A DNA stretch of 64,000 nt from Dictyostelium discoideum (lineage: Eukaryota). The stretch is from assembly GCA_000004695.1 (NCBI GenBank), contig CM000153.2, forward strand, positions 2,368,001-2,432,000, in the 5' to 3' direction. This document shows positions 12,250 through 50,842 of the stretch, in pieces. Made by a program: the position numbers and the translations under genes. Numbering within the stretch: position 1 is the stretch's first letter; every line of letters starts with the position of its first letter. The notes beneath the pieces were generated by a model. That model searched no databases. It worked only from the letters and a program-made list of their open reading frames with translations, and was not told where the DNA came from.

Positions 12250-12796
12250 TTTAATATTTGGGTTTTATGATATTTGAAAAGAAAGAAAAAAAAAAAAAAA
12301 AAAAAAATTAAAAATTAAAAAAAAAAGAAAAATTAAAAAAAAAAATTAAAAATTAAAACCGAAAAAAAAAAATTAAAAAAAAAAAAATAAAAAAAAAAAT
12401 AAATTTAATTAAAGGTCTTAATTCTCCCATGATTTTCATTTTTAGATAAAAGTAAAGAGGAGTTTAGTTTCCAAAATTAGAATCAAATTTCATCTAAATT
12501 TTCTTCTAAAACATAGGTGACTAAATTCAAAAAAATTTAAATAAATTATTCTCTTATATATAAATATATATAAATATTAATGAAATTGTTTGAAAAAAAA
12601 AAAAAAAAAAAAAAATCCTTTTTCGCGCTTTTTTTTATTTTTTTTTTTTTAATTTTTTTTTTATAAATTTTTTTTTTTTTCAACTTTTTTTTTTTTTTTT
12701 TTATTCTTTTTTACTTACTCTTATATTACATAATATATATTTTTTTGTATATATATAAAAAAAAGTTAAAATAAAATAAAAAAAAATAAAATAATA

Positions 12797-14087
12797 ATGG
12801 ATAGTGATGAAGAAACAGTTTTTAAAACACCAATAAAAAGAAAAAAGAGTACAACAATTATTGATGAAGAAGATGATGATATTTTAATAGATAAAGTTGA
12901 TAATGGTAATAACAAAGGTGATGATGAAGATATTAATTTTAAAACACCTTCACCAAAAATAAAGTCAAGATTAAAGAGAATTAAATCGTCACCTTCTTCT
13001 GACATTGATTTCACTCCATCACCAAAATCAAACCAAAAATCCAAAAATGGCACACCAAAAAGTACAACATCTTCACCAAAAATTGCAAATTCAACATCAC
13101 CATATAAACCAACAATAACACCACCAACAACTCCATCACCATCAAAAAAGGACCAAATTAAAAAGAAAATTAATAAATCTCCAATTTCTGCTACCCAATC
13201 TCCATCATCATCACCATTATCACAACCAAAATCAAAACCAATTCAAAATAATAATGATAATAATAGTTATGATAATGAAATTACTAATGATATTGACAAT
13301 CCTTGGGATTTCGGTACATCAGATATAAGAATGAATGATGATGGATCAATGTCAAATGATAATCAATATTTTGCAACACCTGAAAAATATTCTTCACCAT
13401 CAAAACAACAAGACCAAGATAAATCTCCATCACCTCAAAAAAATGTAAATAAAAAAAATGAAAAAGATTTTAAAATTAGTAACAAAAAAGTAATTTTAAG
13501 ATCAATTAAAGATAAGGACTTACTTTCTTTTAAAGGGGTTTCAAAACTTTATAATTCCTTAAAACTTTCTGGTTTCTCCACAAAACAGTCAAATAAAGTA
13601 AGTAATATTTTTTAAAATATATATTTTGACCATTTTATTTTAGAAAAAGGAAAATATAATAAAATAAAATAAAATAAAATAAAAATTTAAAATTAAAATA
13701 TTTCTATTTACCAAACTATAGGCAAATTTAGAAAAGTTATTTGGAATTTACTCTAAATGGACAAAAGAGCTTAATCCATATGTTACACTAGAAAATTCAA
13801 TTATTAATGTTGAGAGGTTGGGTAGAAATAGAATTGTTAGAGTAAGTAATAAAAAAAATAAATAAATAAAAAATTTAAAAAAAAGAAAAAGAAAAAAAAA
13901 AAATAGAATACTAACTTTACACTTTTTTTTTTTTCTTTTTTTTCTATTTATAAATCTTCTTTATAATTTTTTTTATTTTATTTCGTTAATAAATTTTTAG
14001 AATCATATTGATGATTTAAAGAATGGTATAGTGTTTAGTTATAACGAACCAAAAGTAGGTATCATTTTTTATTATAATTGGTGATTT
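12797..14087 (+). CDS. TIPIN/Csm3/Swi3-family (Timeless-interacting) protein with a long S/P/K-rich N-terminal region; exons approx 12797..13597, 13712..13840, 14001..14054 (or read-through to the stop at 14087)
   Basis: Exon 1 ends SFKGVSKLYNSLKLSGFSTKQSNK at an AAG|GTAAGT donor. Exon 2 ANLEKLFGIYSKWTKELNPYVTLENSIINVERLGRNRIV and exon 3 NHIDDLKNGIVFSYNEPK follow the TIPIN core pattern (KLDAQRLISKRGLPAL...[37 protein letters not shown]). Whether the 3' end reads through to 14087 or splices on to 14948 is unresolved. Confidence 0.5.
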
Positions 14088-14329: not shown

Positions 14330-14800
14330 TATTTATTAATCCACAAACATTTCACCACAACACAACACAACACTTCACAAAACACAACTATATTGGGTGG
14401 CTTCTGTGAGGTTAATGCATTTAAATTTTTAATCTCCTCGTTTACCACCCTAAATTAATTGCTAATGATGTCGTTTTTTGAAATTTTACATTTATGGTGT
14501 GTTGATTAATATGTGGGTATGTGTGTGTGTGTAACAACCACCCTTCCTCTTATTATTAACCTCCATTTTTACCCGAATGTTTATTTCATTTTTCACAATC
14601 ATTATCTCTTATCTCCTTATACCTATGTTGCAAAGATACAATTATAGGACAGATACGGATAAGACAACTTTATTATTATTATTATCATTTTTATTTTTAA
14701 AATAATTTATGGTTTATAATTGACCTTTTATTTGTTTTACATGTGTGGTGTGTGGTGTGTGGTGTGTTGTAAGTACTTGTGTGGTTTGTAATCAAAATAA
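14330..14800. promoter_or_regulatory. GC-richer island with (CACAA)n, G/T-rich and (GTGTG)n blocks (CAE / G-box-like elements of the kind bound by G-box binding factor in developmental promoters)
   Basis: Read directly: cacaacacaacacaacacttcacaaaacacaac; gtgggtatgtgtgtgtgtgtaacaaccaccc; gtgtggtgtgtggtgtgtggtgtgttg. Composition departs from the surrounding roughly 85% A+T. Confidence 0.35.
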
Positions 14801-17089: not shown

Positions 17090-17400
17090 AATAAAACACT
17101 ACAACACACACACACACACTAACAAACAAGCTAAAACACACACACATTTTAACCCACTAGATAGAATATTCTATTTTTTGTTAGTTTAGTTAAGTGTGTG
17201 GGTGGGGGTTGTCAGTTTTAATAGCAGATTAAATCTACCCCTTAATATCACACGTACTTCCCAAATTCTATTTAACATTTTATAAAAATAGGGTTCGGTA
17301 AATTAATAATTACAAAGCTCCATTAATTAATTTGGTGGTATTTGGATTTAAAAAATGTAATGGTGCCTGGTGCCTAGTAGTTGGGGTTTATAAATTTTAT
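17090..17400. promoter_or_regulatory. CA-rich and G-rich boxes (candidate CAE/G-box cluster) in the 5 kb ORF-free region upstream of the terpene synthase gene
   Basis: acacacacacacactaacaaacaagctaaaacacacacacatttt, gtgtgtgggtgggggttg and ggtgcctggtgcctagtagttggggtt read directly. Confidence 0.3.
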
Positions 17401-18454
17401 TTTTTATTTTTATTTTATTTTATTTTATTTTATTTAATTTTATTTTATTTTGTTTTGTTTAATATAACTATATTTTTGTCTGTTTTATAAGATTTGTTGG
17501 GCTTGAGTGTGTATGTTGGTATTATTGAATATCAATAATTTTAAAAGTTTCATTGATACATGATATTATCTTATCTATTTTTTGGTACTTATTCACTTTG
17601 TGAAACTTGAAATAATAATAAGATCGTATGAACAGATTATTAAAGTATTATTTTTTCTTGTTGTGTGTGTGTGGGTGTGTAAGTGTGTGTGGTAAATATT
17701 TATTTTTTTATTATTGTTTTATATTTAAAAAATTCTCTTACCAAAATAAAGTATCATCTCATATTATTGTCAATTTTAAAATTTTAAAACAATTCATTAT
17801 TGATATTATTTGATATTAATAATTTTGAATAACAACATATTATTAACTAACTACAAAAAAAAAAAAAAAAAAAAAAAAAAACACAATTAATTATTTATTT
17901 ATAATTAAAAAAAAAAGAAATTTTATTTATAAAAAAAAATCAAGTAATAACAATAACATTGTTTGTATTATTTTATATAAATTAATTTTTTTGTTTACAC
18001 TTTTTGATAAAATTTATATAAAAATTAGAGTTGCATTGCCTTTTTTTTTTTTTTATTTATTTATTTTTTTTTTTTATTTAATTTATTTTATTTTAAATTA
18101 TAAAATAATTTTTTTATTTTTTATTTTTAATTATTTTATTTCTTCCTTAATTTTGGGTGATTTTTCAATCTTTAAATAACAGATATTTAGTTTTTATTGT
18201 GGTCGTAATAACATAATACAAAATTAATTTAAAAAATAAAAAAAAAATAATTGGAATTTTAAAAAAAGATAAAGATATTTATTATTAAATAAATAAAAAA
18301 AAATTGTGTAATATACCTGTTCCATATTAAATACACACAATTTTTTTAATATAGCAGTTTCATTTATTTGTATAAATATATTTTTATACTTTAATTTTTT
18401 TTTAAATCTACCTCCAACCAAAAAATAAAAAAAAAAAAACTAAAACAAAAAATA

Positions 18455-34391: not shown

Positions 34392-34400
<9 letters not shown>

Positions 34401-37380
34401 TTGTTTTGCAACTTCAACATCACAAACCAAGAAATGACTACCAGCTGGTAAAAGTTGAGATGATTTTGAAGAAGTTGTTTTTAAAGCGAATAATACATTG
34501 GCAACTAAACAAGATGGTAAATTTTTATCATATAATTTTTTGAGGGCAGACATTGAATCATTTGAGACACAAACGATACCTTCTTCTAATTGATGACCAT
34601 AATATCTTTCACCTTTTAAGACGAATAAAGCTGTGCAACCTGCTTCAATCTTTGTAAATGTAATTGGAGAACCATTTATGAAATCCATTAATTTAATGTT
34701 CTCTCTTGAGCTGGTGGTTAAATCCTCTTCTAAAGCAGAAGCACGACGACCAGCTTCCAACAATTCCTCTTCGGTACCCATCCAACCAGATATTTTCTCT
34801 TGGAAACTTTCTTCCAAAAGGTGGATTAATTCTTTATTCTTTTCAGTTTGATTCTTACTATGATTTCTTTCAATTTGTTGAACTAATGCTTGGATTCTAT
34901 TTACAGAGATGTCACTTGGAGTTATACAAGTTAAATCTAAATCACCACTATTAAGGGTTTTAAGTGCTTTACCACCAGATCTATATTTTTCAAATCTATC
35001 CAAAATTAAAGCTGATGGTGTTTTCTTTTGACCAATACCTTTTTCAATTGATATGTTATCTGACGATGAAGTGGTAGTTGTAGTGGTTGTTGTAGTAGTG
35101 TCGTGAATATTAATCTTTGAGAAATCTTTAGTTGTTATTTCCATATTATTATTATTATTATTATTATTATTTGAGCCAGCAACACTTGCAATTGATTTTT
35201 CAATAGCCATATCAATTTCAAGATCGAAATCACTCTTAACTTTTGTAACAATGGCAGTGGTAGTATTGGTGGTTGAAGATGATACTAATGATTTCATTAA
35301 TTCTTCTTCTTCTTGTTTATTTAGCTCTACTTTGGTGGTTTCATCGGAATCTTCTAGATCAGATTCACTATCACTATCATCTAAATCTACTTTATTATAT
35401 TGAGCCAATAATTCAATATAAGTGAAACCATGATTATTTACAACACTAATGTCACAATTACTTTCGATTAAGTAGGTGACAATATCGGTATTATTGGTAA
35501 CGATTGCTTTGAAGATTGGTGTTTCACCATCACCATCGACGGCATTAATATTTGAACCAGCTTCAACCAATTTAACAAAGATATTGTAACGACCTAAAGC
35601 GGCAGCCCAATGTAATGGAGTCATACCAGTGTGATCCTTGATATCCAAAAGTCCATCACCCATGAATAAAAAGTGTTCAATGAAAATGGAAACGATACGA
35701 CAATTGTTATCTTGAACAGCATAATGGAAAGCGGTTAAACCACGGTTATCTTTACATTCAACCAATACGTCATATTGTTGACAAATGAATTTGACCAATC
35801 TATAATGACCACGTTCGGTGGCAATATGTAAACCGGTGGCACCAACATTATCGGCATTTAAAAGATCAAGATCACTACCGGATGCTTCGATCACTTGAGT
35901 GACCAATTCAATTGAACCTGAATAACAAGCCATATGGAAAACTGAGTGACTACTTCTATTCTTTATGGTTAAATCAGCACCCATTTCAATCAATTTCTCG
36001 ACCATATCAGTACGACCTTCCTTGGCAGCAATCATAATTAAAGTATTACCTTGTAAGTCTCTAATGGAATTGACGAAACCATCCTTTTCATCACCACTTA
36101 ATAAATCTTCTAATTCTTCAACTTCGCCATGGATTACACAATTCATATAGTTGAAATAACTTGGTGAAGAGTTCATATTGTTATTATTATTACCACTATT
36201 ACCACTGCTACCAGTGATGAAATAAGTTTGACTGTTACCACCAGCACCACCAACAGCACCATTAATGTACATACTATTTGAATAATCTTCACTTGATGGT
36301 GATGAAGGATTTCTATCGCCACCAAAATCAATTTGTTGACCACGTTGACGTTTTGGATTACCATCTTCTGGTAATTCATTATAGGTGAATGGATGTGGTT
36401 TACCGATTTTAGATTTATTTTTGACAGACTTTTCCTTATCTTTTTTGATGGTGTTTTTAGTGTAACGGGTGGTGACATTGTATGAACCAGGTGTTGAACG
36501 ATTTGGTGGAACAAAAGCAAAAGAGAAAGAGGTTTGATTTGGCATACGAAGTTGTTCTTGCTTTACAGAGTATGGTTGATGATCGGGAGATGGTTCCAAT
36601 GGATCGAGATCTACATAGAGAATTTCAGTACGACCTTTCTTAAAGTAGTAACCATAACAAGTTACCTCTGGCTCTTGACCACAATAACAAGAGTTTGGAA
36701 CTAAACGAGCTATATCTGGTGCTGGTAAGAGATCGGTATGGTAAAAGAGATTGATTGGTTGCGAAACAACTTCATTGAAACGTTCAAAAGTTCTCTTGTT
36801 GATTAAAGAGAATTTCAAACGGAATGAACTACATGGGTCATGTTTCTTACGATCGACGTGCATATCGGTGAATTTAAATTCAAATGTACCATCGATACAA
36901 GTAACGGCTGGTTGTGAAATAATGATTGAATCATCTGGCTCTGGATTTGCAACTACCATTAAATCATTGGCATCCCCTTTATAGTTGGCAACTTTGACAA
37001 CTGGTGCTGGAACGAGTACATGAGTTTTGACAGTATAAATTGGGAATGGTTGATTGTAACTATCTACAATTTCAACTTTTGGTCCATAGCTATTAATATT
37101 TACAGGTATATTATTAAAAATTTGTGGATTATTATTAATATTATTATTATTATTATTATTATTATTTCTTTGATTATTAGTTTGAATTTGTTGATTATTA
37201 TTTTGTTGTGGTCTTTGTGGTGATTGAATTAAACCATTATTAAATTGCATTGGTGATGATGCATAATCATTATTTGGTGTTGATGGTTCTGAATATTGGT
37301 TTTGAATTGCTGGCAGTATTAAATTATTACCAGTACTATTCATATTTATATTATTACTATTATTCATATTTATATTGTTA

Positions 37381-37444
<64 letters not shown>

Positions 37445-37689
37445 TATTATTATTACTATTATTATTACTATTATTATTCATATTATTGTTGTTGTTATTA
37501 TTATTATTATTATTATTATTGTTGTTGTTGTTGTTCATATATTGTTGTGTCATTTGTTGCTGCATAAATTGATTTTGGTATACTGATTGAGACGAGTTTG
37601 ATAAATCATTGAAATTATTGTTGTTATTATTATTATTATTACTATTAGTGTTGTTGTTGTTGTTATTACTATTATTATTGTTGATGTTG

Positions 37690-37733
<44 letters not shown>

Positions 37734-38247
37734 GTGATTGTTATTGTTGTTATTGTTATTATTATTATTTCCAAATGATGGTGATCTTATTGGAATTGAG
37801 CCCATTGAATTTATATTGTTGTTGTTGTTGTTATTATTATTATTGTGGTGGTGGTTGTTGTTGTTGTTGTTGTTGTTGCTATTATTATTATTATTATTAT
37901 TATTACTATTGTGGTGATGATGATTATTGTTGTGATTGTGGTTGTTGTTGTTATTATTATTATTGTTGTTGTTGTTGTTGTTGTTATTATTGTTGTTATT
38001 ATTATTACCACCATTATTACCATTATCTTGTTGTGGTGAATGTGGAACTGGCGAATAAACAATAGTATTTGGTTGTGACAATGGTGAGTGTGGTACCATC
38101 GATGTATGTTCATTATTGTTGGAGGTTGGTGCATTTTTAAAGACCAAATTGCCCAAAGCTATTTGTTGGTGAATGTATGACAAAAAGAATGGATCATTTA
38201 AATCTACAGATTGAGGATTGGTATTATTGTTGTTATTATTATTATTG

Positions 38248-38279
<32 letters not shown>

Positions 38280-38515
38280 GTTATTATTATTATTATAGTA
38301 ACCCATATTATTGTTATTACTGTAACTATTGTTGTTGTTATTATTATTATTATTACTATTATTATTATTATTATAGCAATTATTAGTATTATTATTATTA
38401 TTATTATTACTGTTATTGTCAAAAAAGATCTCGTCTGATCCATTAGACACATAACCATTCACAGAATCCTTGGTCATCATATTTCCATCGTCATTATTAT
38501 TGTTGTTGTTATTAA

Positions 38516-38547
<32 letters not shown>

Positions 38548-38579
38548 GAATATTGGTTGTTATTGTATGATTGATCCAT
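34392..38579 (-). CDS. Very large (1395 aa) poly-N/poly-H-rich protein with a central beta-rich domain and a C-terminal block of ankyrin repeats; single long exon
   Basis: ANK repeats GNTLIMIAAKEGRTDMVEKLIEMGADL..., TGLHIATERGHYRLVKFIC, TAFHYAVQDNNCRIVSIFI, TPLHWAAALGRYNIFVKLVEAGSNINAVDGDGETPIFKAIV. Upstream conserved region PFPIYTVKTHVLVPAPVVKVANYKGD...CYGYYFKKGRTEILYVDLDP of unknown family. Extreme homopolymeric N, H and T runs. Confidence 0.7.
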
Positions 38580-38900: not shown

Positions 38901-39435
38901 AATTGAAAAAAATAAAATTTTTTTTCTGCGTTTTGCAAGACAAGGGGTGGTTGAAAGAAAAAAAATAAATAAAAATAATAAAATAAAAAAATTTATTATT
39001 TGTTTAATTATTAAAGTATTTATTTATAAAAAATGCTTTTTGAATTATTATATTATATTGTTATTATTATTTAAATAATTTTTTTTATTGTATGTGTATT
39101 TTTTAATAATATTGTATATTGATAATAAAAAAAAAAAAAAAAAATTGAAAAAAAAGTTGAAAAAAATAAAAAAAAATAAAAAAAAATTGGAAAATTTTGT
39201 CTTAAAGACTGAGGAAAACCTTTCTTCCTTGGGAGACTTCTTTGTACACACAATTTTTTTTAGTAAACAAAGTCAAAGGATATTATATGAATAATATTTT
39301 ATTACCTCAAGGAAATTTTTGATAAACAAAGTCAAATGATATTATGTGAATAATAATTTTTTATTATTATCTTCCATTGTTTTTTTTTTTTAAAAAAAAA
39401 AAAAAAAATAGTAATAAATTGAAATAAATTCAATT

Positions 39436-39478
<43 letters not shown>

Positions 39479-40032
39479 AACAAGTTAATTAATTTGTATG
39501 TTTTTATTATTAAATACACCATTAATTAATTTTATTACTATTATTATTTTTAATCTTTTTTTTTTTTAAAATAATATCTTTTTTTTTTTTCCTTTTTTTT
39601 TTATTTTTTTTTTAAAATTTTTGGTATAAAAATGTGTGGTGTTGAGAAAAAATATCTCTCAAATGAAAGACAGTGCGATAGTCTAAAATTTTCAAAAAAG
39701 AGAATTCTTTGTGTTTGAGCCAGGGGCTTCATATTTATGTGAAAATTTTAATTGCTCAAAGTCTAAAAAAAATAAAAAAAAATAAATAAAAATTTAAAAT
39801 AAATTGAAACAAATATAACCAATGATAACAAATAGAATTTTTTTTTTTTTTTTATTCCCCAACCAAACATTTTTATTGTTTTTTTTTTTTTTTTTTGTTT
39901 TTTTTATGTTTTTTGTTTTTTTTTGGTTAATCTTAAAGTTAAATAATAAAAGATTTTGTTTGGTTATATTTATCTTTTTTTTTTTTTATTTTTTTTCTCA
40001 AAAAACTTTTTCCTTTACAACTTTTATCTTTT

Positions 40033-40145
40033 GTCATTTAATTTTTTTTTTTTTTTTAAAATATCCGGCAACACCACCTGATGTTTTGTCATTTAATTTT
40101 TTTTTTTTTAAAATATCTTCGGCAACATCACCTGATGTTTTGAAA
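40033..40145 (+). repeat. Tandem duplication of a roughly 57-bp unit GTCATTTAATTTTTTTTTTTTTTAAAATATC(C/TT)CGGCAACA(C/T)CACCTGATGTTTTG
   Basis: Two adjacent near-identical copies read directly. Each contains a GC-richer CGGCAACAYCACCTGATG core. Confidence 0.7.
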
Positions 40146-40462
40146 AAAAAAAAATAAAAAAAAAAATTTAATAAAAAAATAAAATAAAAAAAAAATTTAA
40201 TAAAAAAATAAAATAAAAAAAAAATTTAAAAAAAAAAATCTTGAAATAGTTTGGGTTATTTTCATTTTTTTTTCTTTTTTCTCTTTTCTTATTTTTTTTT
40301 GTTCACAAATCTTTTTTGTTTTTAGTAATAATTTGTCAGAGATCACATAAGTTTAGAACTTTATTATCAACCAACGAGTTAGTTTAAAATTATATTAAAA
40401 TAAAAATAAAAAATTCCAAAAAAAAAAAAAAAAAAAAAAAGGCCCAAAACCAGAATGTTTCA

Positions 40463-40534
<72 letters not shown>

Positions 40535-40565
40535 ATTATTTGATTATAATTTAATCAGTCTTTTC

Positions 40566-40601
<36 letters not shown>

Positions 40602-41122
40602 AACCTTATGAATAAATATAGTGTTGAGGTTTATAAAATGAAAGGCCCTTTAAGATTGTTAAAAAATTAGCAAAAATAGAAAGTTCTTTGTGTCAGCCAT
40701 ATAGGTCCAGGATTATGTTAATCTATTATTACCCATTCATTTTATTTTTTATATTTTTTTATTTTTTTATTTTTTTTTTAAAAAACTTTTTCCTTTGCAA
40801 TCTAAGATTTTTTTTTTTTTAAAAAAGTATCTCAGTTCAATGTGATCTTAAAATAGAAAAATGTTTGTAAAATTTTTTTTTTTTTTCTATAATGTTATTC
40901 GTAATATTAACCTTTTATTTAGTTTTTTTTTTTTATATTTTTATATTTTTAAAAATATTTTCTAAAATAATATGTAAGAGTGTGGTTGAAAAAAAAAAAA
41001 AGGCTTTTTATTGAGATATTTTAATTTGGTGGTTTATTAAGTAATTAAAAATTATAAAATGATTTGGGATATTAATATTTTTAAATTTTAGAAATTTATT
41101 AAATGGCTTCTTTTAAATTCTG

Positions 41123-41165
<43 letters not shown>

Positions 41166-41368
41166 ATAAAAAGCAAAATTTAGGTGCCTTTTAAACTTTT
41201 AGTATTTATTAGATTATCTTTTTTGATAGTTACTCATATATTTTAAATTATTAAATACTCAAAGCCAATAAATAATTTAATCAAAAAGGGAAATAAATTT
41301 TATGGATTTTATCACATTCTTAAATGATTTTTTTTTTTAATTATTTGATTGAGAAATAATAAAAACAA

Positions 41369-41413
<45 letters not shown>

Positions 41414-41763
41414 TAAAAAAATATATTGTTATATTATATTTAAATGAAATTTCGTTTTTCTCAGTTTGATTTTTTAAACAGTTAAAATTTAAAAATGATC
41501 AATTGGAATGCAAAAATCCTTTTTTTTTTTTTTTTTTTTTTTAAAAAAAATAATATTTACTGTATAACATTATTATTATTTATAAAAACTGTTCTTTGAT
41601 ATATGTTGTTTCTAATAACATTTGATTTAAATTTGAATTTTTTTTTTTATGATATATCTTAAAATTTTATTTGTTGGCATTTTGGTTTCCTACATTATAT
41701 AAATAAATTAATTTGAAAAATCTTGTTGGTCAAAGTGGAAAATTAACACCTTTTTTTAAAATT

Positions 41764-43508
41764 TTATAATTTTAGATTATTAAAATCTTTAAGATTTTTA
41801 CGTAATAGTTTACCAGTTGCAGATTTAGGAATTGCAGGTATGAAAAAGATACCACCTCTGAAATGTTTATAATTTGCAATTTTTGGGTGAGCCCAATCCA
41901 AGAGTTCTTTTTCAGTAAGAGATTCATTTTGTTTAATAACAACGAAACCTCTTGGTACTTCACCCATATCACCTTTTGAAAGACCTACTACACAGGCATC
42001 TGCAACTTTTGGATGAGATAATAGTAATGCTTCTAATTCAGCAGGTGGTACTTGGAAACCTTTACATTTGATCAATTCCTTTGATCTATCGATGATAAAG
42101 AAATAACCATCTTCATCAACATAACCAATATCACCAGTTTTTAAGAATCCATCTTTATCTATGACTTCATTGGTTGCCTTTTCATTGTTATAATAACCCA
42201 ACATAACATTTGGACCTTTAATACAGATTTCACCCTTTTCACCCATACCTAAATTCTCACCAGTCTCTGAAGAGATGATTTTAGCTAATAGATTGGGTAA
42301 GAGGGTACCAGAGGAACCCGATTTAACTAATCCATTTGGGGTTACAAAACAACATGGACTAAGTTCGGTAGCACCATAACCTTGTTTAATTACAAGTCTG
42401 CCTTTGAATCTTTCTTTAATTAAATCTTCAATCTCTGAACCTAATGGAGCAGCACCACAAAATAGTGTACGTAAACTTGAGAGATCAAATTTATCGACGA
42501 TTGGTGATTTTGCAAACATGATAGCAATCGGTGGAACAATGAATGACATTGCAACCTTATACTTTTTAATTAATTCCAAGAATCTAACTGGTTCGAATTT
42601 TGGTAAGGTAACAATTCGATAACCTTGTTTCACCATCAACATTATGTGTAACATTAAACCAAAGGAATGAAAGAATGGTAAGACACCAATAACGCTATCA
42701 TTCTTTTTATAGGTTGATGTTTCAATGGTTTGAGTTTGATATGTATTTGAGACTAGATTATAGTGACTTAAACAAACACCTTTAAATAATCCAGTTGTGC
42801 CACTTGAAAATGGAATAATAGCTGTATCTTTCGTTAGATCAATTCTAACGATTGGGTAATCTTTACCATTATTATTAGTTAATTGATTAAACGACATTAC
42901 AATTCCATCACTAGATAAAGTTAATTGATCAATTTCTTTTAAAGTTTGACCTGCAATATCGACTAAAATCACTTTTTCAACACTTGGAAAAACTCTTTTT
43001 AAATCATTTTTAATCTTTTCATATACTGCTAATGTTACTGCTAAATATCTTGGTGAAACTGTTGCTAATGTATGTGATAACTCTTCAATTGTATAGTCTG
43101 GATTAACTAATGATGTAATGCCTCCCATCAATAATGTACCATGAAATATTGGTACATATTCTGGTAAATTTGGTAGAATTACTCCAAGTACATCACCTTT
43201 TTTAATATTTAATTTATTTAAACCACATGCAACCTAATTAAAAAATAATAAAAATAAAAATAAAAAAAAAAATTTTTAAAACTTGTTTGGAAATAGAAAA
43301 AAAAAAAAAAAAATTTATTTACCTTTTCAATTGTATCAGCGACAAAATGTGAAGAATATTCTTTAAAAGTTAAACCATCAACTAATAAAACTTGATCAGG
43401 TTTATATCTTATATGTTTTAAAATTAAATGTGGTATTGGTTTCTCTGGTATTATAATATTTGGGTATTTTGATGTGAAATAAGTTTGTCCATTAATTATT
43501 CTAATCAT
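41764..43508 (-). CDS. 4-coumarate-CoA ligase-like acyl-activating enzyme (ANL/AMP-binding superfamily), tandem copy A; 2 exons approx 43323..43508 and 41764..43233
   Basis: Exon 1 MIRIINGQTYFTSKYPNIIIPEKPIPHLILKHIRYKPDQVLLVDGLTFKEYSSHFVADTIEK ends at an AAG|GTAAAT donor. An AATTAG acceptor joins VACGLNKLNIKKGDVLGVILPNLPEYVPIFHGTLLMGGITS. Box I FSSGTTGLFKGV, box II GEICIKGPNVMLGYYNN, QGYGATELSP. Total length about 552 aa, as for D. discoideum 4cl1-3. Confidence 0.85.
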
Positions 43509-43613
43509 CCTTAAATTTTTAATTTTTTTTTTTAAAATGGTATTGTGTTTATGCTATGGGTTATTATTTAAAAAATTTTCTGTTGGTATTAATATATTAC
43601 ATTTAAATAAAGG

Positions 43614-43652
<39 letters not shown>

Positions 43653-44191
43653 AACAGTTTTATTAATTGTTTGTTTTACTATTATTAATAGTAAATTTTT
43701 TTTTTTTTTTTTATATTTTTTATAGTATAAAAATGTGGTGTTTAGAAAAAATATCTCAAACTGGAGATTTTTCAAAAATAAAAATACTAACAAATATTTT
43801 TCTCTTGCCAAACATTTTTTATTTGTTTATTATTTTTTATTATTACTATAATTAATATTATGATTATTAAAAACTTATTAATATTAAACAATTTAATTCA
43901 TTACATATCAAAAATTAAAAAATTGCAATCGATAATAAAAAAAAAATCTTGGTCCATAATATTTTCTTTTTTTTTTTTGAAAATGTTTTTTTATTTTATT
44001 TTCTATTTTTTATTATATTTTTTTTTCCTCCCTACTGTTTTTTTATTTGTAATAAGTAAAAAAAAAAAAACACGGTAAAACCGAATCTCGAGAATATCTT
44101 TTAAAATTTTCTTAATGACAAGACCTAATTTTTTTTTTTTTATTTTTAAAACTTGTTTGGAAATAGAAAAAAAAAAAAAAAAATTTATTTA

Positions 44192-44378
44192 CCTTTTCAA
44201 TTGTATCAGCGACAAAATGAGAAGAATATTCTTTAAAAGTTAAACCATCAACTAATAAAACTTGATCAGGTTTAGATCTAATATGTTTTAAAATTAATTG
44301 AGGTATTAGTTTCTCTGGTATTATAATATTTGGGTATTTTGATGCGAAATAAGTTTGTCCATTAATTATTCTAATCAT
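44192..44378 (-). pseudogene. Orphan duplicate of 4CL-like exon 1 plus the intron start, with no downstream exon 2 (duplication relic)
   Basis: MIRIINGQTYFASKYPNIIIPEKLIPQLILKHIRSKPDQVLLVDGLTFKEYSSHFVADTIEK is followed by GTAAAT. The homologous intron runs to the acceptor region ...ACCTAATT (about 44124), then similarity to exon 2 stops. Confidence 0.7.
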
Positions 44379-44842
44379 CCTAGAAATTTTTTTTTTTTTT
44401 TTTTAATAAACAATGGCGAAACTTAAATTAGGAGAATTTTGGAAAACAAAGAAATAATAAAAAAAAAGTTAAAAATAATAATTATTTATTTTTTAAAAAA
44501 TGGTATGGTGTTTAAAAAAAAAAGTTAAAAATAATAATTATTTATTTTTTGCCTCGTAAAAAAAAAAAATAATAAAGTATATTAATTTGTTTGTTTTAAT
44601 TAATTTTATGTTACGCCACATTAATTAATTTTATTTAGTATTTGGCTTTTATCGATAAAAGGTGTTTTTTTTTGTATACCTTTCTTCATTTATCCTAATC
44701 TTTTTAAATAATAAATTGAAAAAAAATCAATAAAATGTGAATAATAAAAATTTAGGTGCCGAAAAAAAGGTGTTTTGGATTTGTATGGGGTGGAAGAAAA
44801 TAAAAAAATATAAGTAAAAAAAAAAAAAGAGGAGTCAAACCC

Positions 44843-44864
44843 CACAAACGCCCCATAAAATTAC
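44843..44864 (+). promoter_or_regulatory. Tandem pair of DUSE-like motifs (ACCCCACAAA + GCCCCATAAAA) matching the Dictyostelium upstream sequence element consensus [AT]CCCA[CT]AA of ncRNA genes
   Basis: Read directly in aaccccacaaacgccccataaaa. Embedded in a locally GC-richer patch between the orphan 4CL exon and 4CL copy B. Confidence 0.3.
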
Positions 44865-45036
44865 TTTTCACAAATAAAAAATTAAAAAAAAATAAAAAAA
44901 TACAAAAAAAAAGTGGTGTTGTCATAAATAGTAAATCACGCAAGATATTTTAGACTAGTAAAAAACAGTGCTATTTGAATTCAAACCGACATTAAAAAAT
45001 AATTTTATCTTTTTTTTTTTTTTTTAATTTAAAAAA

Positions 45037-45098
45037 ACAGATGGTCTGTTTTTTTTTTTTTTTTTTTTTTTTTCTCCCCATCTGTTTTTTTAAATTAA
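45037..45098. terminator. Perfect 9-bp inverted repeat AACAGATGG ... CCATCTGTT enclosing a 35-nt T/C loop (hairpin), about 200 bp downstream of the 4CL copy B stop codon
   Basis: Read directly. Function (3'-end processing signal, replication-slippage relic or protein-binding palindrome) is unknown. Confidence 0.25.
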
Positions 45099-45290
45099 AA
45101 GACCAGGAGAAAAAAAAATAAAAAAACAAAAAATATCAAAGAATTTTATTCAGTATTATTTAGAAAAAAGAAAATATTAATAATTTATACTAATAAAATA
45201 TATTTTTTTATATAGAATCAATCCAAAACATTAGTTTAGCAACTTGTTGTAAATTTTAAATTTTTATTTTTTATTATAATTTTATTTATT

Positions 45291-47024
45291 TTATAATTTC
45301 GGAGGATTAATATCTTTAAGATTTTTACGTAATAGTTTACCAGTTGCAGATTTAGGAATTGCAGGTATGAAAAAGATACCACCTCTGAAATGTTTATAAT
45401 TTGCAATTTTTGGATGAGCCCAATCCAAGAGTTCTTTTTCGGTTAGAGATTCATTTTGTTTAATAACAACGAAACCTCTTGGTACTTCACCCATATCACC
45501 TTTTGAAAGACCTACTACACAGGCATCTGCAACTTTTGGATGAGATAATAGTAATGCTTCTAATTCAGCAGGTGGTACTTGGAAACCTTTACATTTGATC
45601 AATTCCTTTGATCTATCGACGATAAAGTAATAACCATCTTCATCAACATAACCAATATCACCAGTTTTAAAGAATCCATCTTTATCTATGACTTCATTGG
45701 TTGCCTTTTCATTGTTATAATAACCCAACATAACATTTGGACCTTTAATACAGATTTCACCCTTTTCACCCATACCTAAATTCTCACCAGTCTCTGGAGA
45801 GATGATTTTAACCAATTGATTGGGTAAGAGGATACCAGCGGAACCAGATTTAATTAGTCCACTTGGAATTACAAAACAGGCTGGACTAAGTTCGGTAGCA
45901 CCATAACCTTGTTTAATTATGAGTTTTCCTTTGAATCTTTCTTTAATTAAATCTTCAACCTCTCTGCTTAATGGAGCAGCGCCACTAAATAGTGTACGTA
46001 AACTTGAGAGATCAAATTTATCGACGATTGGTGATTTTGCAAACATGATAGCAATCGGTGGAACAATGAATGAAATTGCAACCTTGTACTTTTGAATTAA
46101 ATCCAAGAATCTAACGAATTCAAATTTTGGTAGGATAACAACACAATGACCTTGTTTTACCATCAAAATTAGGTATGTCATTAAGCCATAGATATGAAAA
46201 AATGGTAGTTGACCCATAACTGTATCATTCTTTTTATAGTTTGTCGTTTCAACGGTTTGAGTTTGATGTGTATTGGAAACGAGATTATGATGACTTAAAC
46301 AAACACCTTTAAATAATCCAGTTGTACCACTTGAAAATGGAATAATAGCTGTATCTTTCTTTAGGTCAATTCTAACGATTGGGTAATCTTTACCATTATT
46401 ATTAATTAGTTGATTGAATGACATTACAATTCCATCACTAGATAAAGTTAATTGACCAATTTCCTTTAAAGTTTGACCTGCAATATCTACTAAAATCACT
46501 TTTTCAACACTTGGAAAAACTCTTTTTAAATCATTTTTAATCTTTTCATAAACTGCTAATGTTACTGCTAAATATCTTGGTGAAACTGTTGCTAATGTAT
46601 GTGATAGCTCTTCAATTGTATAGTCTGGATTAACTAATGATGTAATGCCTCCCATCAATAATGTACCATGAAATATTGGTACATATTCTGGTAAATTTGG
46701 TAGAATTACTCCAAGTACATCACCTTTTTTAATATTTAATTTATTTAAACCACATGCAACCTAATTGAAAAATAATAAAAATAAAAATAAAAAATTGATA
46801 TTAGTTTTGGAAAAAAAAAAAAAAAGAAATTTATTTACCTTTTCAATTGTATCAGCGACAAAATGTGAAGAATATTCTTTAAAAGTTAAACCATCAACTA
46901 ATAAAACTTGATCAGGTTTCGATCTAATATGTTTTAAAATTAAATGTGGTATTGGTTTCTCTGGTATTATAATATTTGGGTATTTTGATGTGAAATAAAT
47001 TTGTCCTTTAATCATTCTAATCAT
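45291..47024 (-). CDS. 4-coumarate-CoA ligase-like acyl-activating enzyme, tandem copy B; 2 exons approx 46849..47024 and 45291..46760
   Basis: Same architecture and motifs as copy A. About 88-90% amino-acid identity to copies A and C by eye. Confidence 0.85.
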
Positions 47025-47363
47025 CCTGAAATTGTTATTTTTTTTTTTAAAAATATCAAAAAAAAAAAAGAATAAAATAAAACTTAAACCAGGAGAATTT
47101 TGAAAAAAAAAAATATTTAAATTTAAAATGTTAAAAAATGGTATGGATGTGTTTAAGCTATGGGCTAATATTTAAATAATATACAATAGGTAATATTTTA
47201 CAAACAAATTAAAAAATTAAAAAAATATCAAAAAAAAAAAAAATTAAATAAAAAAAAAAAAAAAAAATCAAGTTTAAAAATTTGTGTGTTTTAATTATTA
47301 TTATATTAGACACATTAATTAGTTTTATTATTATTATTTTTTCTTTTTTTTCTACTTTAAAAA

Positions 47364-47399
<36 letters not shown>

Positions 47400-48041
47400 A
47401 TTTTTTAAAATGTGTGGTTTAGGAATAAGATCCCTCAAATAAGATTATGCCAATTGAAAATTATAAAAAATTAATTTTCCAATATAAAGAATAAACAAAG
47501 AAAAAATGTTTTGCACTGGGTTTATAAAATTAAACAAAAATTTAATATAAATTAAAACAATCTCTCATTTTTCAAAAATGATTCAATCAATTAAAAAAAT
47601 GAAAGATTGCAAAATTTTATTAATTTAAAATTAAGTTTATTAATATCTTCGGTGAAAAAAAGAAAATTCACAGAAGAAAAAAAAAAAAAAAATCATTTTC
47701 CACATAAAACTATTCAAATTAATTTATTTATTCAAACAAATAAAAATTTATGAAATATTTGAAATATCTAATAAAGAAAAAAAATCGAAATAATATACAT
47801 ATAGCATATTGAATAGTTTTAAAAAAAAAACAAAATTCAAACCAAATATTATTAAAAACTAAAGAATGTTTTTCAGTAAATATTATTTAGAAAAAAAGAA
47901 AAAAATTTAATAATCTATGCCAATATTATATATATTTTTTTTTATAGAATCACATTAGTTTAATAACTTGTTGTAAGTTGTGTTTAAATTTTTATTTTTC
48001 GACTTAAGTTTAATTTTTTATTTTTTATTTTTTATTTTATT

Positions 48042-49558
48042 TTATAATTTTGGAGGATTAAAATCTTTAAGATTTTTACGTAATAGTTTACCGGTTGCAG
48101 ATTTAGGAATTGCAGGTATGAAAAAGATACCACCTCTGAAATGTTTATAATTTGCAATTTTTGGATGGGCCCAATCTAAGAGTTCTTTTTCGGTTAGAGA
48201 TTCATTTTGTTTAATAACAACGAAACCTCTTGGTACTTCACCCATATCACCTTTTGAAAGACCTACTACACAGGCATCTGCAACTTTTGGATGAGATAAT
48301 AGTAATGCCTCCAATTCGGCAGGAGGTACTTGGAAACCTTTACATTTGATCAATTCCTTTGATCTATCGACGATAAAGTAATAACCATCTTCATCGACGT
48401 AACCAATATCACCAGTTTTTAAGAATCCATCTTTATCTATGACTTCATTGGTTGCCTTTTCATTGTTATAATAACCCAACATAACATTTGGACCTTTAAT
48501 ACAGATTTCACCCTTTTCACCCATACCTAAATTCTCACCAGTCTCTGGAGAGATGATTTTAGCCAATTGATTGGGTAAGAGGATACCAGCGGAACCAGAT
48601 TTAACTAATCCACTTGGAATTACAAAACAGGCTGGACTAAGTTCGGTAGCACCATAACCTTGTTTAATTACAAGTCTGCCTTTGAATCTTTCTTTAATTA
48701 AATCTTCAACCTCTGAACTCAATGGAGCAGCACCACTAAATAGTGTACGTAAACTTGAGAGATCAAATTTATCGACGATTGGTGATTTTGCAAACATGAT
48801 AGCAACTGGTGGAACAATGAATGAAATTGCAACCTTATACTTTTGAATTAACTCCAAGAATCTAACTGGTTCAAATTTTGGTAAGACAACAACACGATGA
48901 CCTTGTTTCACCATCAACATTAAGAATAACATTAAACCATAGATATGAAAGAAAGGTAATATACCCATAACTGTATCATTCTTTTTATAGGTTGATGTTT
49001 CAATGGTTTGAGTTTGATATGTATTGGAAACGATATTATGATGACTTAAACAAACACCTTTAAATAATCCAGTTGTACCACTTGAAAATGGAATAATAGC
49101 TGTATCTTTCTTTGGGTCAATTCTAACGATTGGGTAATCTTTACCATTATTATTAATTAGTTGATTGAATGACATTACAATTCCATCACTAGATAAAGTT
49201 AATTGATCAATTTCTTTTAAAGTTTGACCTGCAATATCGACTAAAATCACTTTTTCAACACTTGGAAAAACTCTTTTTAAATCATTTTTAATCTTTTCAT
49301 ATACTGCTAATGTTACTGCTAAATATCTTGGTGAAACTGTTGCTAATGTATGTGATAACTCTTCAATTGTATAGTCTGGATTAACTAATGATGTAATGCC
49401 TCCCATCAATAATGTACCATGAAATATTGGTACATATTCTGGTAAATTTGGTAGAATTACTCCAAGTACATCACCTTTTTTAATATTTAATTTATTTAAA
49501 CCACATGCGACCTAATTGAAAAATAAATAAAAATAAATAAAAAAACTATTAATATTTG

Positions 49559-49591
<33 letters not shown>

Positions 49592-49784
49592 TATTTACCT
49601 TTTCAATTGTATCAGCGACAAAATGTGAAGAATATTCTTTAAAAGTTAAACCATCAACTAATAAAACTTGATCAGGTTTAGATCTAATATGTTTTAAAAT
49701 TAATTGTGGTACTGGTTTCTCTGGTATTATAATATTTGGGTATTTTGATGTGAAATAAGTTTGTCCTTTAACTTTTATAATCAT
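48042..49784 (-). CDS. 4-coumarate-CoA ligase-like acyl-activating enzyme, tandem copy C; 2 exons approx 49600..49784 and 48042..49511
   Basis: Same architecture and motifs as copies A and B. Confidence 0.85.
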
Positions 49785-50208
49785 CCTGAAATTATTATTT
49801 AAAGTTGAAAAAAAAAAAAAAAAAAAAAAAGAAAATATAATAAATTAAAACAAAAATGAAAAGAATATTGGGAGTAAAGAAAAAATAATAAAATTTAAAA
49901 AAAAAAGTTAAAAATAATTGGTTATTTTTTTTAAAAAATGGTGTGAATGTGTTTATGCTATGGATTAATATCTAATAATTTACAAAGGTATTTTACAAAT
50001 AAATATCTAAAAAAAAAAAAAACTAATTTTAAAAAAAAAAAAAAAAAAATTAATTTAAAAAAAAAAAAAAAAAATTAATTAAAAAAAAAAAAAAAAAAAA
50101 AAATCGAACGTTTGATTTTTTTAACTGAAATTTCCAATCGTCATAATATCCTAAATTAATTTAAATGATGGTTTTTTGAAATTACAAACATTGCGCAAAT
50201 ATTAAAAC

Positions 50209-50239
<31 letters not shown>

Positions 50240-50842
50240 CTTTTATTTTTTAATATTAAAATTTTTTTTTTTGTTTTGTGTTTTGTTTAATTTTGTTTTG
50301 TTTTTTTTTTTTTATTTTATTTTTATTTTTTATCTTTTTTATTTTTACCTGAAAACCTTATTTGATTTTGAAAATGTTAAAAAAACAAAACCTGACGACA
50401 TATGATGAATTTTTATTTTTATTTTTATACCACCATATTATTTTTTTTAATTTTTTTAATTTTTTTTATTTGACAATTCAAGTAATTTTTTATAAGCTTT
50501 CCCAAATAGGATGGAAATAATTTTTTTGTTTTAAGATTTTTTTTGTTTTATTAATTTAAAAAAAAAAATTATTAAAAAAAAAAAAGAATGAATATTTGTT
50601 AACTCAATCGAATAAATAAATATTTTAAACCATACAATCCAAATTAAAAAATATATATATATTTGGAAAATAACCTTAATATTTAATTTCTGGAAAATAC
50701 AAATGGAGAGGGAGATATGAATTTTTTTTTTTTTTATATCGATAAAGTACTTTATTTTATTATTTTTATTTTATTATTTTGTTATTTTATTATATTATTT
50801 TTAATTATTATTTATTTATTATTTTTTTATTTTTTTATTTTT

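Follow-up and report, generated by a model that had tools for sequence, protein, structure and literature searches.

A family of intergenic elements around the 4CL genes of Dictyostelium discoideum is probably spacer DNA multiplied with the gene array

The window analysed here is a 64-kb stretch of the Dictyostelium discoideum genome (contig CM000153.2 of assembly GCA_000004695.1, positions 2,368,001 to 2,432,000 of the forward strand) that carries an array of genes for 4-coumarate-CoA ligase (4CL). Among these genes lie short, related intergenic segments, here named e1 to e4, which an initial annotation had described as a dispersed family that might be a conserved enhancer, a set of small non-coding RNA (ncRNA) genes or a mobile repeat. 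We find that the four-member family is real and local to one locus. The elements are most likely paralogous intergenic DNA, multiplied in the D. discoideum lineage by the tandem (unequal-exchange) duplications that built the 4CL array. Their origin by duplication is well supported, and divergence at a neutral level together with the natural loss of copies suggests that they are neutral relics without function.

Results

Four related elements confined to one locus

We measured relatedness by local alignment, scored against 300 dinucleotide-preserving shuffles. On the same strand e1, the fullest member, aligns with e2 (z score 6.8), e3 (z 7.9) and e4 (z 8.3), and e3 aligns with e4 (z 5.8); in each case none of the 300 shuffles reaches the observed score. 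Opposite-strand scores of member pairs are lower, with e3-e4 still at z 3.6 (1 of 300 shuffles). The 5' core (TATAAAAATGTGTGGTGTTKAGAAAAAATATCTCTCAAAT) is common to e1, e3 and e4. Among the members e2 is related to e1 alone: it has lost the TGTGG/GAAAAAATATCTC core and shares with e1 the 3' part, TTCTTTGTGT...AGCCA...GG...TTATGT, which in its fuller form reads ...AAATGAAAG...GATWGT...AAAATT...AGTTCTTTGTGT...AGCCA...GG...TTATGT. The cores quoted in the initial annotation are all present at the positions it gave. Its list of related segments holds for e1-e4 (z 5.8-8.3) but not for 44905-44995 and 40960-41020, which are not significantly related, and the internal segment it regarded as shared (ttctttgtgt...agcca...gg) is present in e1 and e2, and only there.

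The GC content of the elements, 0.25-0.33 against 0.02-0.15 in the flanking homopolymer tracts, bears out the remark that they are GC-richer than their surroundings. The same level is also reached by other non-repetitive intergenic stretches (for example 39180-39270) of this strongly AT-rich window, in which GC per 2 kb is 0.15-0.33. The elements stand out because they are complex sequence of ~30% GC set between fast-evolving homopolymer tracts. Compared with the window by BLAST, they gave no further match outside low-complexity sequence and none outside 39.4-47.6 kb; the core 12-mer, with up to 2 mismatches allowed, has intergenic occurrences in the window only at e1, e2 and e3. We also compared ~22 kb around the array in each of five related genomes, which were found by protein search with 4CL (L001-L005, Table 2), and no copy lies outside the 4CL locus in these five 22-kb orthologous loci. 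In the window and these loci the family is therefore not dispersed, contrary to the initial proposal. A metagenome scan for the 20-mer GTGTTKAGAAAAAATATCTC returned two unrelated contigs, which we set aside as chance matches to the 20-mer alone.

Collinear flanks and the duplication junction

Upon comparing the surroundings of the copies, we observed the same order to the left of e1, e3 and e4: poly(A), a spacer beginning tcaaaca, poly(T), and then the element, with the poly(T) tract and the core aligning together between copies. The left spacer of e1 resembles those of e4 (z 8.7) and e3 (z 5.7), as well as the spacer in the unit upstream of an exon-1-only 4CL fragment (z 5.5), which in turn resembles that of e4 (z 10.2; Table 1). 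Behind the spacer of the exon-1-only unit we detected no equivalent of an element, 44645-44770 not being similar to e1-e4, and the left spacers show no likeness to 50104-50210, their counterpart upstream of the outermost 4CL copy.

To the right of the elements, unique GC-containing 9-11-mers recur in a shared order: CCAAACATT at 39863/43808 in the e1 and e3 units, ATATCTTCGG at 40113/47643 in the e1 and e4 units, and ACTTTTTCCT at 40005/40785 in the e1 and e2 units, with a further collinear e1/e2 anchor at 39705/40684. From the positions of CCAAACATT, e3 would be e1 minus an internal deletion of ~100 nt. Global alignment of the AT-rich spacers and one MAFFT run were uninformative or partly misaligned. 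Because their flanks are homologous and collinear and no terminal inverted repeats other than A/T sequence occur, the elements appear to be segmental duplicates rather than discrete insertions.

The 4CL genes lie on the minus strand, so that their upstream side is at higher coordinates. Homology of their 5' flanks, as found by BLAST between inter-gene regions, spans exon 1, the ATG, the conserved AAAATGGTATGGATGTGTTTAWGCTATGGG block and A-runs; it joins 46750-47280 to 49501-50085 and then ends at ~47280/50085, which marks the duplication junction. e4 starts ~120 nt past this end, and e3 is correspondingly placed after 43650. No element occurs at 49785-50840, the 5' flank of the outermost 4CL gene, and this flank resembles the one that precedes the only 4CL gene of D. 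dimigraforme (...aaatttcc/g..tcgtcat...). The 3' flank of that single gene carries an A-run and ttcaaacaagt, the start of the left spacer of e1, which points to the 3' flank as the origin of the block. A tblastn search with 4CL protein in 38.6-41.8 kb revealed no 4CL coding remnant beside e1 and e2. aaaatttaggtgcc is common to 41175-41188, within the 3' flank of 4CL gene 1, and 44747-44760, within the spacer lying upstream of the exon-1 remnant; probably this too is a collinear remnant of the duplicated 3'-flank block.

These arrangements suggest how the array may have been assembled; we infer both the order of events and exchange within poly(A) tracts as the mechanism. The ancestral order would have been that of D. 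dimigraforme, namely an upstream gene, the 5' flank, one 4CL gene, the 3' flank and an ankyrin-repeat gene. Tandem duplication would then have had its breakpoints at two A-runs, one of them within the 5' flank and one within the 3' flank, such that each unit carried along a part of the 3' flank: poly(A), the ~80-nt spacer and poly(T), then the e segment with more sequence behind it. Each spacer of the array would thereby consist of a 4CL 5' flank, the junction, and 3'-flank DNA starting with spacer, poly(T) and e, whereas e1 and e2 would have stayed behind in the original 3' flank, which underwent one duplication of its own. About-neutral divergence, indels and the loss of whole copies would have followed. 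This layout of the junction by itself places e3 and e4 a few hundred base pairs upstream of the next 4CL ATG, without invoking function.

Table 1. Positions of the elements, their spacers and other features in the window
Feature	Position	Strand	Remarks
e1	39625-39770	plus	fullest member; in the 3.2-kb intergenic stretch that separates the ankyrin-repeat gene from the 3' end of 4CL gene 1
e2	40606-40730	plus	same 3.2-kb region as e1; 5' core decayed, 3' part e1-like
e3	43724-43830	plus	216-322 bp upstream of ATG 43508 of 4CL gene 1
e4	47403-47530	plus	379-506 bp upstream of ATG 47024 of 4CL gene 2
e5	44905-45000	plus	'weaker' copy of the initial annotation; rejected as member
e6	40955-41050	plus	second weak copy of the initial annotation; rejected as member
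Left spacer of e1	39476-39558	plus	tcaaacaagttaattaatttg...; ~80 nt, between poly(A) and poly(T)
Left spacer of e3	43650-43690	plus	shortened
Left spacer of e4	47268-47345	plus	
Spacer of exon-1-only unit	44570-44650	plus	upstream of the exon-1-only 4CL fragment
4CL gene 1	41764-43508	minus	intact, two exons; ATG 43508
4CL gene 2	45291-47024	minus	intact, two exons; ATG 47024
4CL gene 3	48042-49784	minus	intact, two exons; outermost copy
Fourth 4CL copy	44112-44378	minus	exon-1-only remnant; ATG intact
Left neighbour	34392-38579	minus	1395-amino-acid open reading frame with ankyrin-like repeats (repeat type assigned by eye); ATG 38579
Right neighbour	from 50843	minus	3' end of another gene
AAAATGGTATGGATGTGTTTAWGCTATGGG block	43534-43600, 44497-44520, 47135-47200, 49925-49990		
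G/T-only run clusters	354-576, 14512-14532, 17104-17209, 17662-17680, 21061		

Divergence and loss among related genomes

As a neutral yardstick we used the 4-fold degenerate sites of the neighbouring ankyrin-repeat gene, with all identities taken relative to the window copy (Table 2). Element identity ranges over 0.67-0.97, against 0.87-0.93 at the 4-fold sites, which indicates that the elements evolve at about the neutral rate; each orthologue comparison contains 1-22 gap columns. In a sliding-window profile, identity rises modestly at 39630-39689 and 40650-40739 above the level of the homopolymer DNA around them, which is prone to slippage.

Table 2. 4CL copies at the five orthologous loci, and identity of elements and 4-fold degenerate sites to the window
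Locus	Genome	4CL copies	e1	e2	e3	e4	4-fold sites
L001	D. dimigraforme	1					0.73
L002	D. cf. discoideum	2	0.83	0.80	0.67	n/a	0.87
L003	D. cf. discoideum GCA_054859205.1	3, plus a truncated copy and a short fragment	0.94	0.85	n/a	0.79	0.89
L004	D. discoideum strain GCA_054859385.1	3	0.94	0.93, 0.95	n/a	n/a	0.93
L005	D. discoideum strain	5	0.97	0.85, 0.89	0.92	0.85	0.92

The number of elements varies as well. Orthologues of e1 and e2 are found in L002-L005, and copies of the e3 and e4 type in some of the array spacers; e2 is doubled in L004 and L005, and several array spacers of these two strains hold no element. In L004 there is no e3-bearing spacer, and a ~400-bp deletion takes out e4, with the adjoining 543-amino-acid 4CL gene intact. 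The D. dimigraforme locus carries no element. The array itself is polymorphic in copy number among these close relatives, from 1 to 5 genes, with 3 in D. discoideum AX4. Of the suggestion that a conserved enhancer was duplicated with the genes, the duplication holds, as the elements lie in larger collinear blocks; the conserved enhancer is not supported, given the neutral divergence and the loss of e4 beside an intact gene.

Within the window, the 4CL paralogues (41764-43131, 45291-46658 and 48042-49409) have an identity of ~90% at 4-fold sites, which rises to as much as 96% in some thirds of the genes, whereas the co-duplicated spacers are 52-60% identical over full elements and ~85% in the best-kept core. 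That gene bodies are closer to one another than spacers suggests gene conversion, selection on the genes, or much older spacers.

Alternative explanations

Several observations pull against an origin as neutral by-products of duplication. D. dimigraforme lacks the element, so that the e sequence is not traced to a single-copy relative. The cores open with a TATA-like TATAAAAA; the G/T-rich run behind it matches the half-site of the transcription factor GBF once each in e1 and e4 (there is no strict match in e2 or e3), and the minus strand of e1 gives a better fold than shuffled versions of it (z -3.7). Over its 5' 60 nt, e1 is 0.92-0.95 identical to the two D. cf. discoideum genomes, a local peak, where synonymous sites reach 0.87-0.89 and the low-complexity DNA alongside 0.65-0.80; e2 has a similar local identity peak in its 3' half. 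These peaks may leave room for weak constraint. The excess of the e1 5' peak over the synonymous rate amounts to 2-4 substitutions and is not significant, and the fold of e1 arises from an inverted repeat specific to this copy (AAAATTTTCA/TGAAAATTTTA).

The elements could be a duplicated cis-regulatory module that is still in use, with e3 and e4 controlling 4CL and e1 the ankyrin-repeat gene through transcription factors that would bind the palindrome TTGAGA-N9-TCTCAA, a GBF-type box rich in G/T and a TATA-like box, but we consider this unlikely. Their placement speaks for it: e3 and e4 lie 216-506 bp upstream of the minus-strand 4CL ATGs 43508 and 47024, matching the 220-500 bp of the initial annotation. 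In addition, TGTGTGG of e1 and e4 fits the GBF response element, whose published half-site is (T/G)G(T/G)G(T/G)G(T/G) (PMC2257962), and the 5' core of e1 is a modest local conservation peak. However, the G/T run has not been preserved: e1 has lost it in L004 and carries an altered form in L003, e4 of L005 has another sequence in its place, and e2 lacks it. e1 does not match the bipartite G/T pattern KGKGKGKNKGK, while clusters that do match exist elsewhere in the window. The deletion of e4 in L004 beside an intact 4CL gene indicates that e4 is dispensable for retention of the gene. Rather than accompanying every 4CL gene, the element is missing from several spacers of L004 and L005, from the outermost 4CL copy and from the single gene of D. 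dimigraforme, and where present it diverges at the neutral level.

It is very unlikely that the elements are small ncRNA genes or precursors on the plus strand that start at a TATA/AAATGTG sequence (a 'TGTG box'). AAATGTG does stand at the 5' edge of e1, e3 and e4, and T-rich or A-rich tracts follow the elements; yet the motif is not enriched in the window (16 observed against 23 expected). Class I RNA genes of Dictyostelium combine the TGTG box with a DUSE, [A/T]CCCA[C/T]AA, ~60 nt upstream of it (Kjellin et al. 2021, PMC7919456). No DUSE (CCCAYAA) occurs within 150 nt upstream of e1-e4. Class I genes also have a conserved 11-nt motif; nothing like CCTTACAGCAA is present near the elements. 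An Rfam scan of 38-51 kb at E<=10 returned noise only, mostly on an A/T palindrome at 45031-45149, with no family on the elements even at E=0.1, and a tRNA scan of the whole window found none. RNAalifold predicts no pair in 18 paralogues and orthologues, the fold z of the other copies and strands is -0.8 to +1.1, and the copies differ by large indels and neutral divergence. The small ncRNA family suggested initially thus lacks an Rfam match, a DUSE, a Class I motif and a consensus structure, and the folding check proposed alongside it gave neither a covariance-type Rfam match nor RNAalifold consensus pairs. We likewise regard as highly improbable a mixed reading in which the elements are promoter-proximal parts of DUSE-independent ncRNAs, transcribed opposite to 4CL from a TATA-like box followed by AAATGTG, which were co-amplified and modulate expression of the array; if true, such transcripts would bear on whether the TGTG box itself is the transcription start. 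A MITE (miniature inverted-repeat transposable element)-like or other transposable element inserted repeatedly near 4CL would also account for short, non-coding, multi-copy segments with A/T tracts alongside, but deserves very little credence. The flanks are homologous and collinear between copies, leaving no sharp boundaries; inverted repeats are low-complexity A/T only, none being shared at the termini; and no transposase or reverse-transcriptase reading frames lie nearby. All copies have one orientation within one 8-kb locus; neither the other 56 kb nor the flanks at the orthologous loci hold any, and no dispersed copy exists in the ~170 kb covered by window and orthologous loci. The MITE-like repeat of the initial annotation is accordingly not supported by the termini, the boundaries or the distribution in this ~170 kb. 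Finally, the probability is negligible that the elements represent exons, decayed or not, of a small protein gene divergent from 4CL, such as the open reading frame of e1 (ATG 39632, ending after 28 codons; MCGVEKKYLSNERQCDSLKFSKKRILCV). An aaaATG context and short reading frames are present in e1, e3 and e4, but these frames stop at differing places after 10-40 codons. The ATG of e1 reads AAAGTG in L003 and is disrupted in L004 by deletion of TGTGG, a 2-nt indel directly follows the ATG in e3 relative to e1, and the indels, including 1-nt and 7-nt ones between strains, are not multiples of three.

Weak candidates and other features of the locus

Both weak copies listed initially were rejected as members (Table 1). 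e5 scores z about 0-1 against e1-e4, apart from e3-e5 (z 3.5), which we took as an A-run match. It shares with the family only the 9-mer GTGGTGTTG (44913), and in its 3' part it runs collinear to the 3' flank of a different 4CL copy (44979/47835). For e6 the same-strand z is ~0, and a minus-strand z of 4.9 is attributed to a poly(A)/poly(T) match. A GTGGTTGAAA-type motif common to e6 and the promoter region of the ankyrin-repeat gene was discarded as well, since it is not enriched.

We also considered e5 as a DUSE-driven RNA gene. The DUSE-like motifs CCCACAA (44841) and CCCATAA (44852) lie in this inter-4CL spacer ~55-70 nt upstream of GTGGTGTTG, and a T-run at ~45012 follows e5. In L004 and L005 the corresponding motif is altered (ACCCACCAA) and ~115 nt away, and the body of e5 has a 29-nt deletion. 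Because the motif spacing is not kept in these strains, e5 gives no fold signal and it is not a family member, this candidate was rejected. An inverted partner, tttgtatgggg, is located at ~44785, near the tandem DUSE-like motifs (44841-44858).

The protein of 4CL gene 1 is 100% identical to D. discoideum AX4 'Probable 4-coumarate--CoA ligase 3'. That of the exon-1 remnant is 90% identical to exon 1 of 4CL gene 2, and homology of the remnant to the intact copies begins at 44142, within the intron; this break suggests that exon 2 was lost through deletion. The counterpart of the remnant in L004 appears intact. A literature search for Dictyostelium 4cl genes gave only plant papers.

The AAAATGGTATGGATGTGTTTAWGCTATGGG block is conserved 30-140 bp upstream of every 4CL ATG, that of the exon-1 remnant included, and is also present in L004 and L005; as a candidate for the proximal promoter of 4CL it is preferable to the e elements. 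Paired GBF-type half-site clusters occur elsewhere in the window with 20 matches against 1 expected; the G/T-only runs that form clusters (Table 1) are candidate G-box elements or simple TG repeats.

The A/T-rich palindrome at 45031-45149 has short GC-containing arms (...aaacagatgg...ccatctgttt...) and lies ~150-250 nt downstream of the stop of 4CL gene 2. It draws weak Rfam miRNA and leader matches (E 0.17-5.7), related cagatc/gatctg palindromes are found in L004 and L005, and it is probably a 3'-end or terminator hairpin. Three short local tandem duplications are intergenic: a ~47-nt unit, ttgtcatttaatttttt...aaaatatc(c/tt)cggcaaca(c/t)cacctgatgtttt, in 2 copies at 40042-40140; a 29-nt A-rich unit in ~3 copies at 40150-40235; and a ~57-nt unit, taaacaaagtcaaa(g/t)gatattat(a/g)tgaataata..., in 2 copies at 39262-39350. 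In L003, a predicted 143-amino-acid gene with one short intron is encoded between e2 and the 4CL array (13127-13584, minus strand of the locus); neither the window nor any of the other four loci has it, and it is strain-specific. In L001, a long near-perfect inverted repeat (cttgggaaaatcttgatgtgaaaaaa ... ttttttcacatcaagattttcccaag) at ~12400-12530 in the 3' flank of the single 4CL gene can form a hairpin.

Discussion

The outcome is essentially the scenario that the initial annotation had itself set against its proposals, a local duplication artefact. It removes a candidate regulatory or ncRNA family, which matters little by itself. As a by-product, the analysis yields a map of how the 4CL array was built, with the position of the junction, a gene remnant reduced to exon 1, and a block that occurs twice in the 3' flank. 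An array that ranges from one to five genes offers a modest case, from nature, of evolving copy number, and probably also of gene conversion, where the genome is extremely AT-rich.

Compared with known systems, the elements resemble GBF G-box or CA-rich elements in having a G/T-only run (TGTGTGGTGTTG) with one fitting heptamer in very AT-rich upstream DNA. They differ from the G-box in that this putative site is a single half-site instead of a closely spaced pair, and is not conserved between strains or paralogues. With Class I RNA genes they have in common the AAATGTG at the 5' edge of e1, e3 and e4, and also that they are short, do not code for protein and occur in several copies in a Group 4 dictyostelid. 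By contrast, they lack a DUSE 60 nt upstream, the 11-nt motif, a terminal stem and the G...CUGU ends, and measure about 100-150 nt where Class I RNA genes measure 42-65 nt. MITEs, which in Dictyostelium include short putative non-autonomous elements named 'thug', are of the same size class and also non-coding; unlike them, the e elements have neither terminal inverted repeats nor target-site duplications, their flanks are homologous, and the copies are not dispersed in the sequence covered. The closest likeness is to paralogous spacers of tandem gene arrays. As in such arrays, the e copies are confined to the array in one orientation, occupy equivalent positions relative to the genes, are collinear past the element and vary in number between strains, and the spacers have diverged more than the gene bodies. 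Nothing essential sets them apart; e1 and e2 lie in the 3' flank without an adjacent 4CL remnant, which points to an extra local duplication or to deletion of a gene body. Spacer DNA carried along in this manner is an ordinary by-product of tandem duplication.

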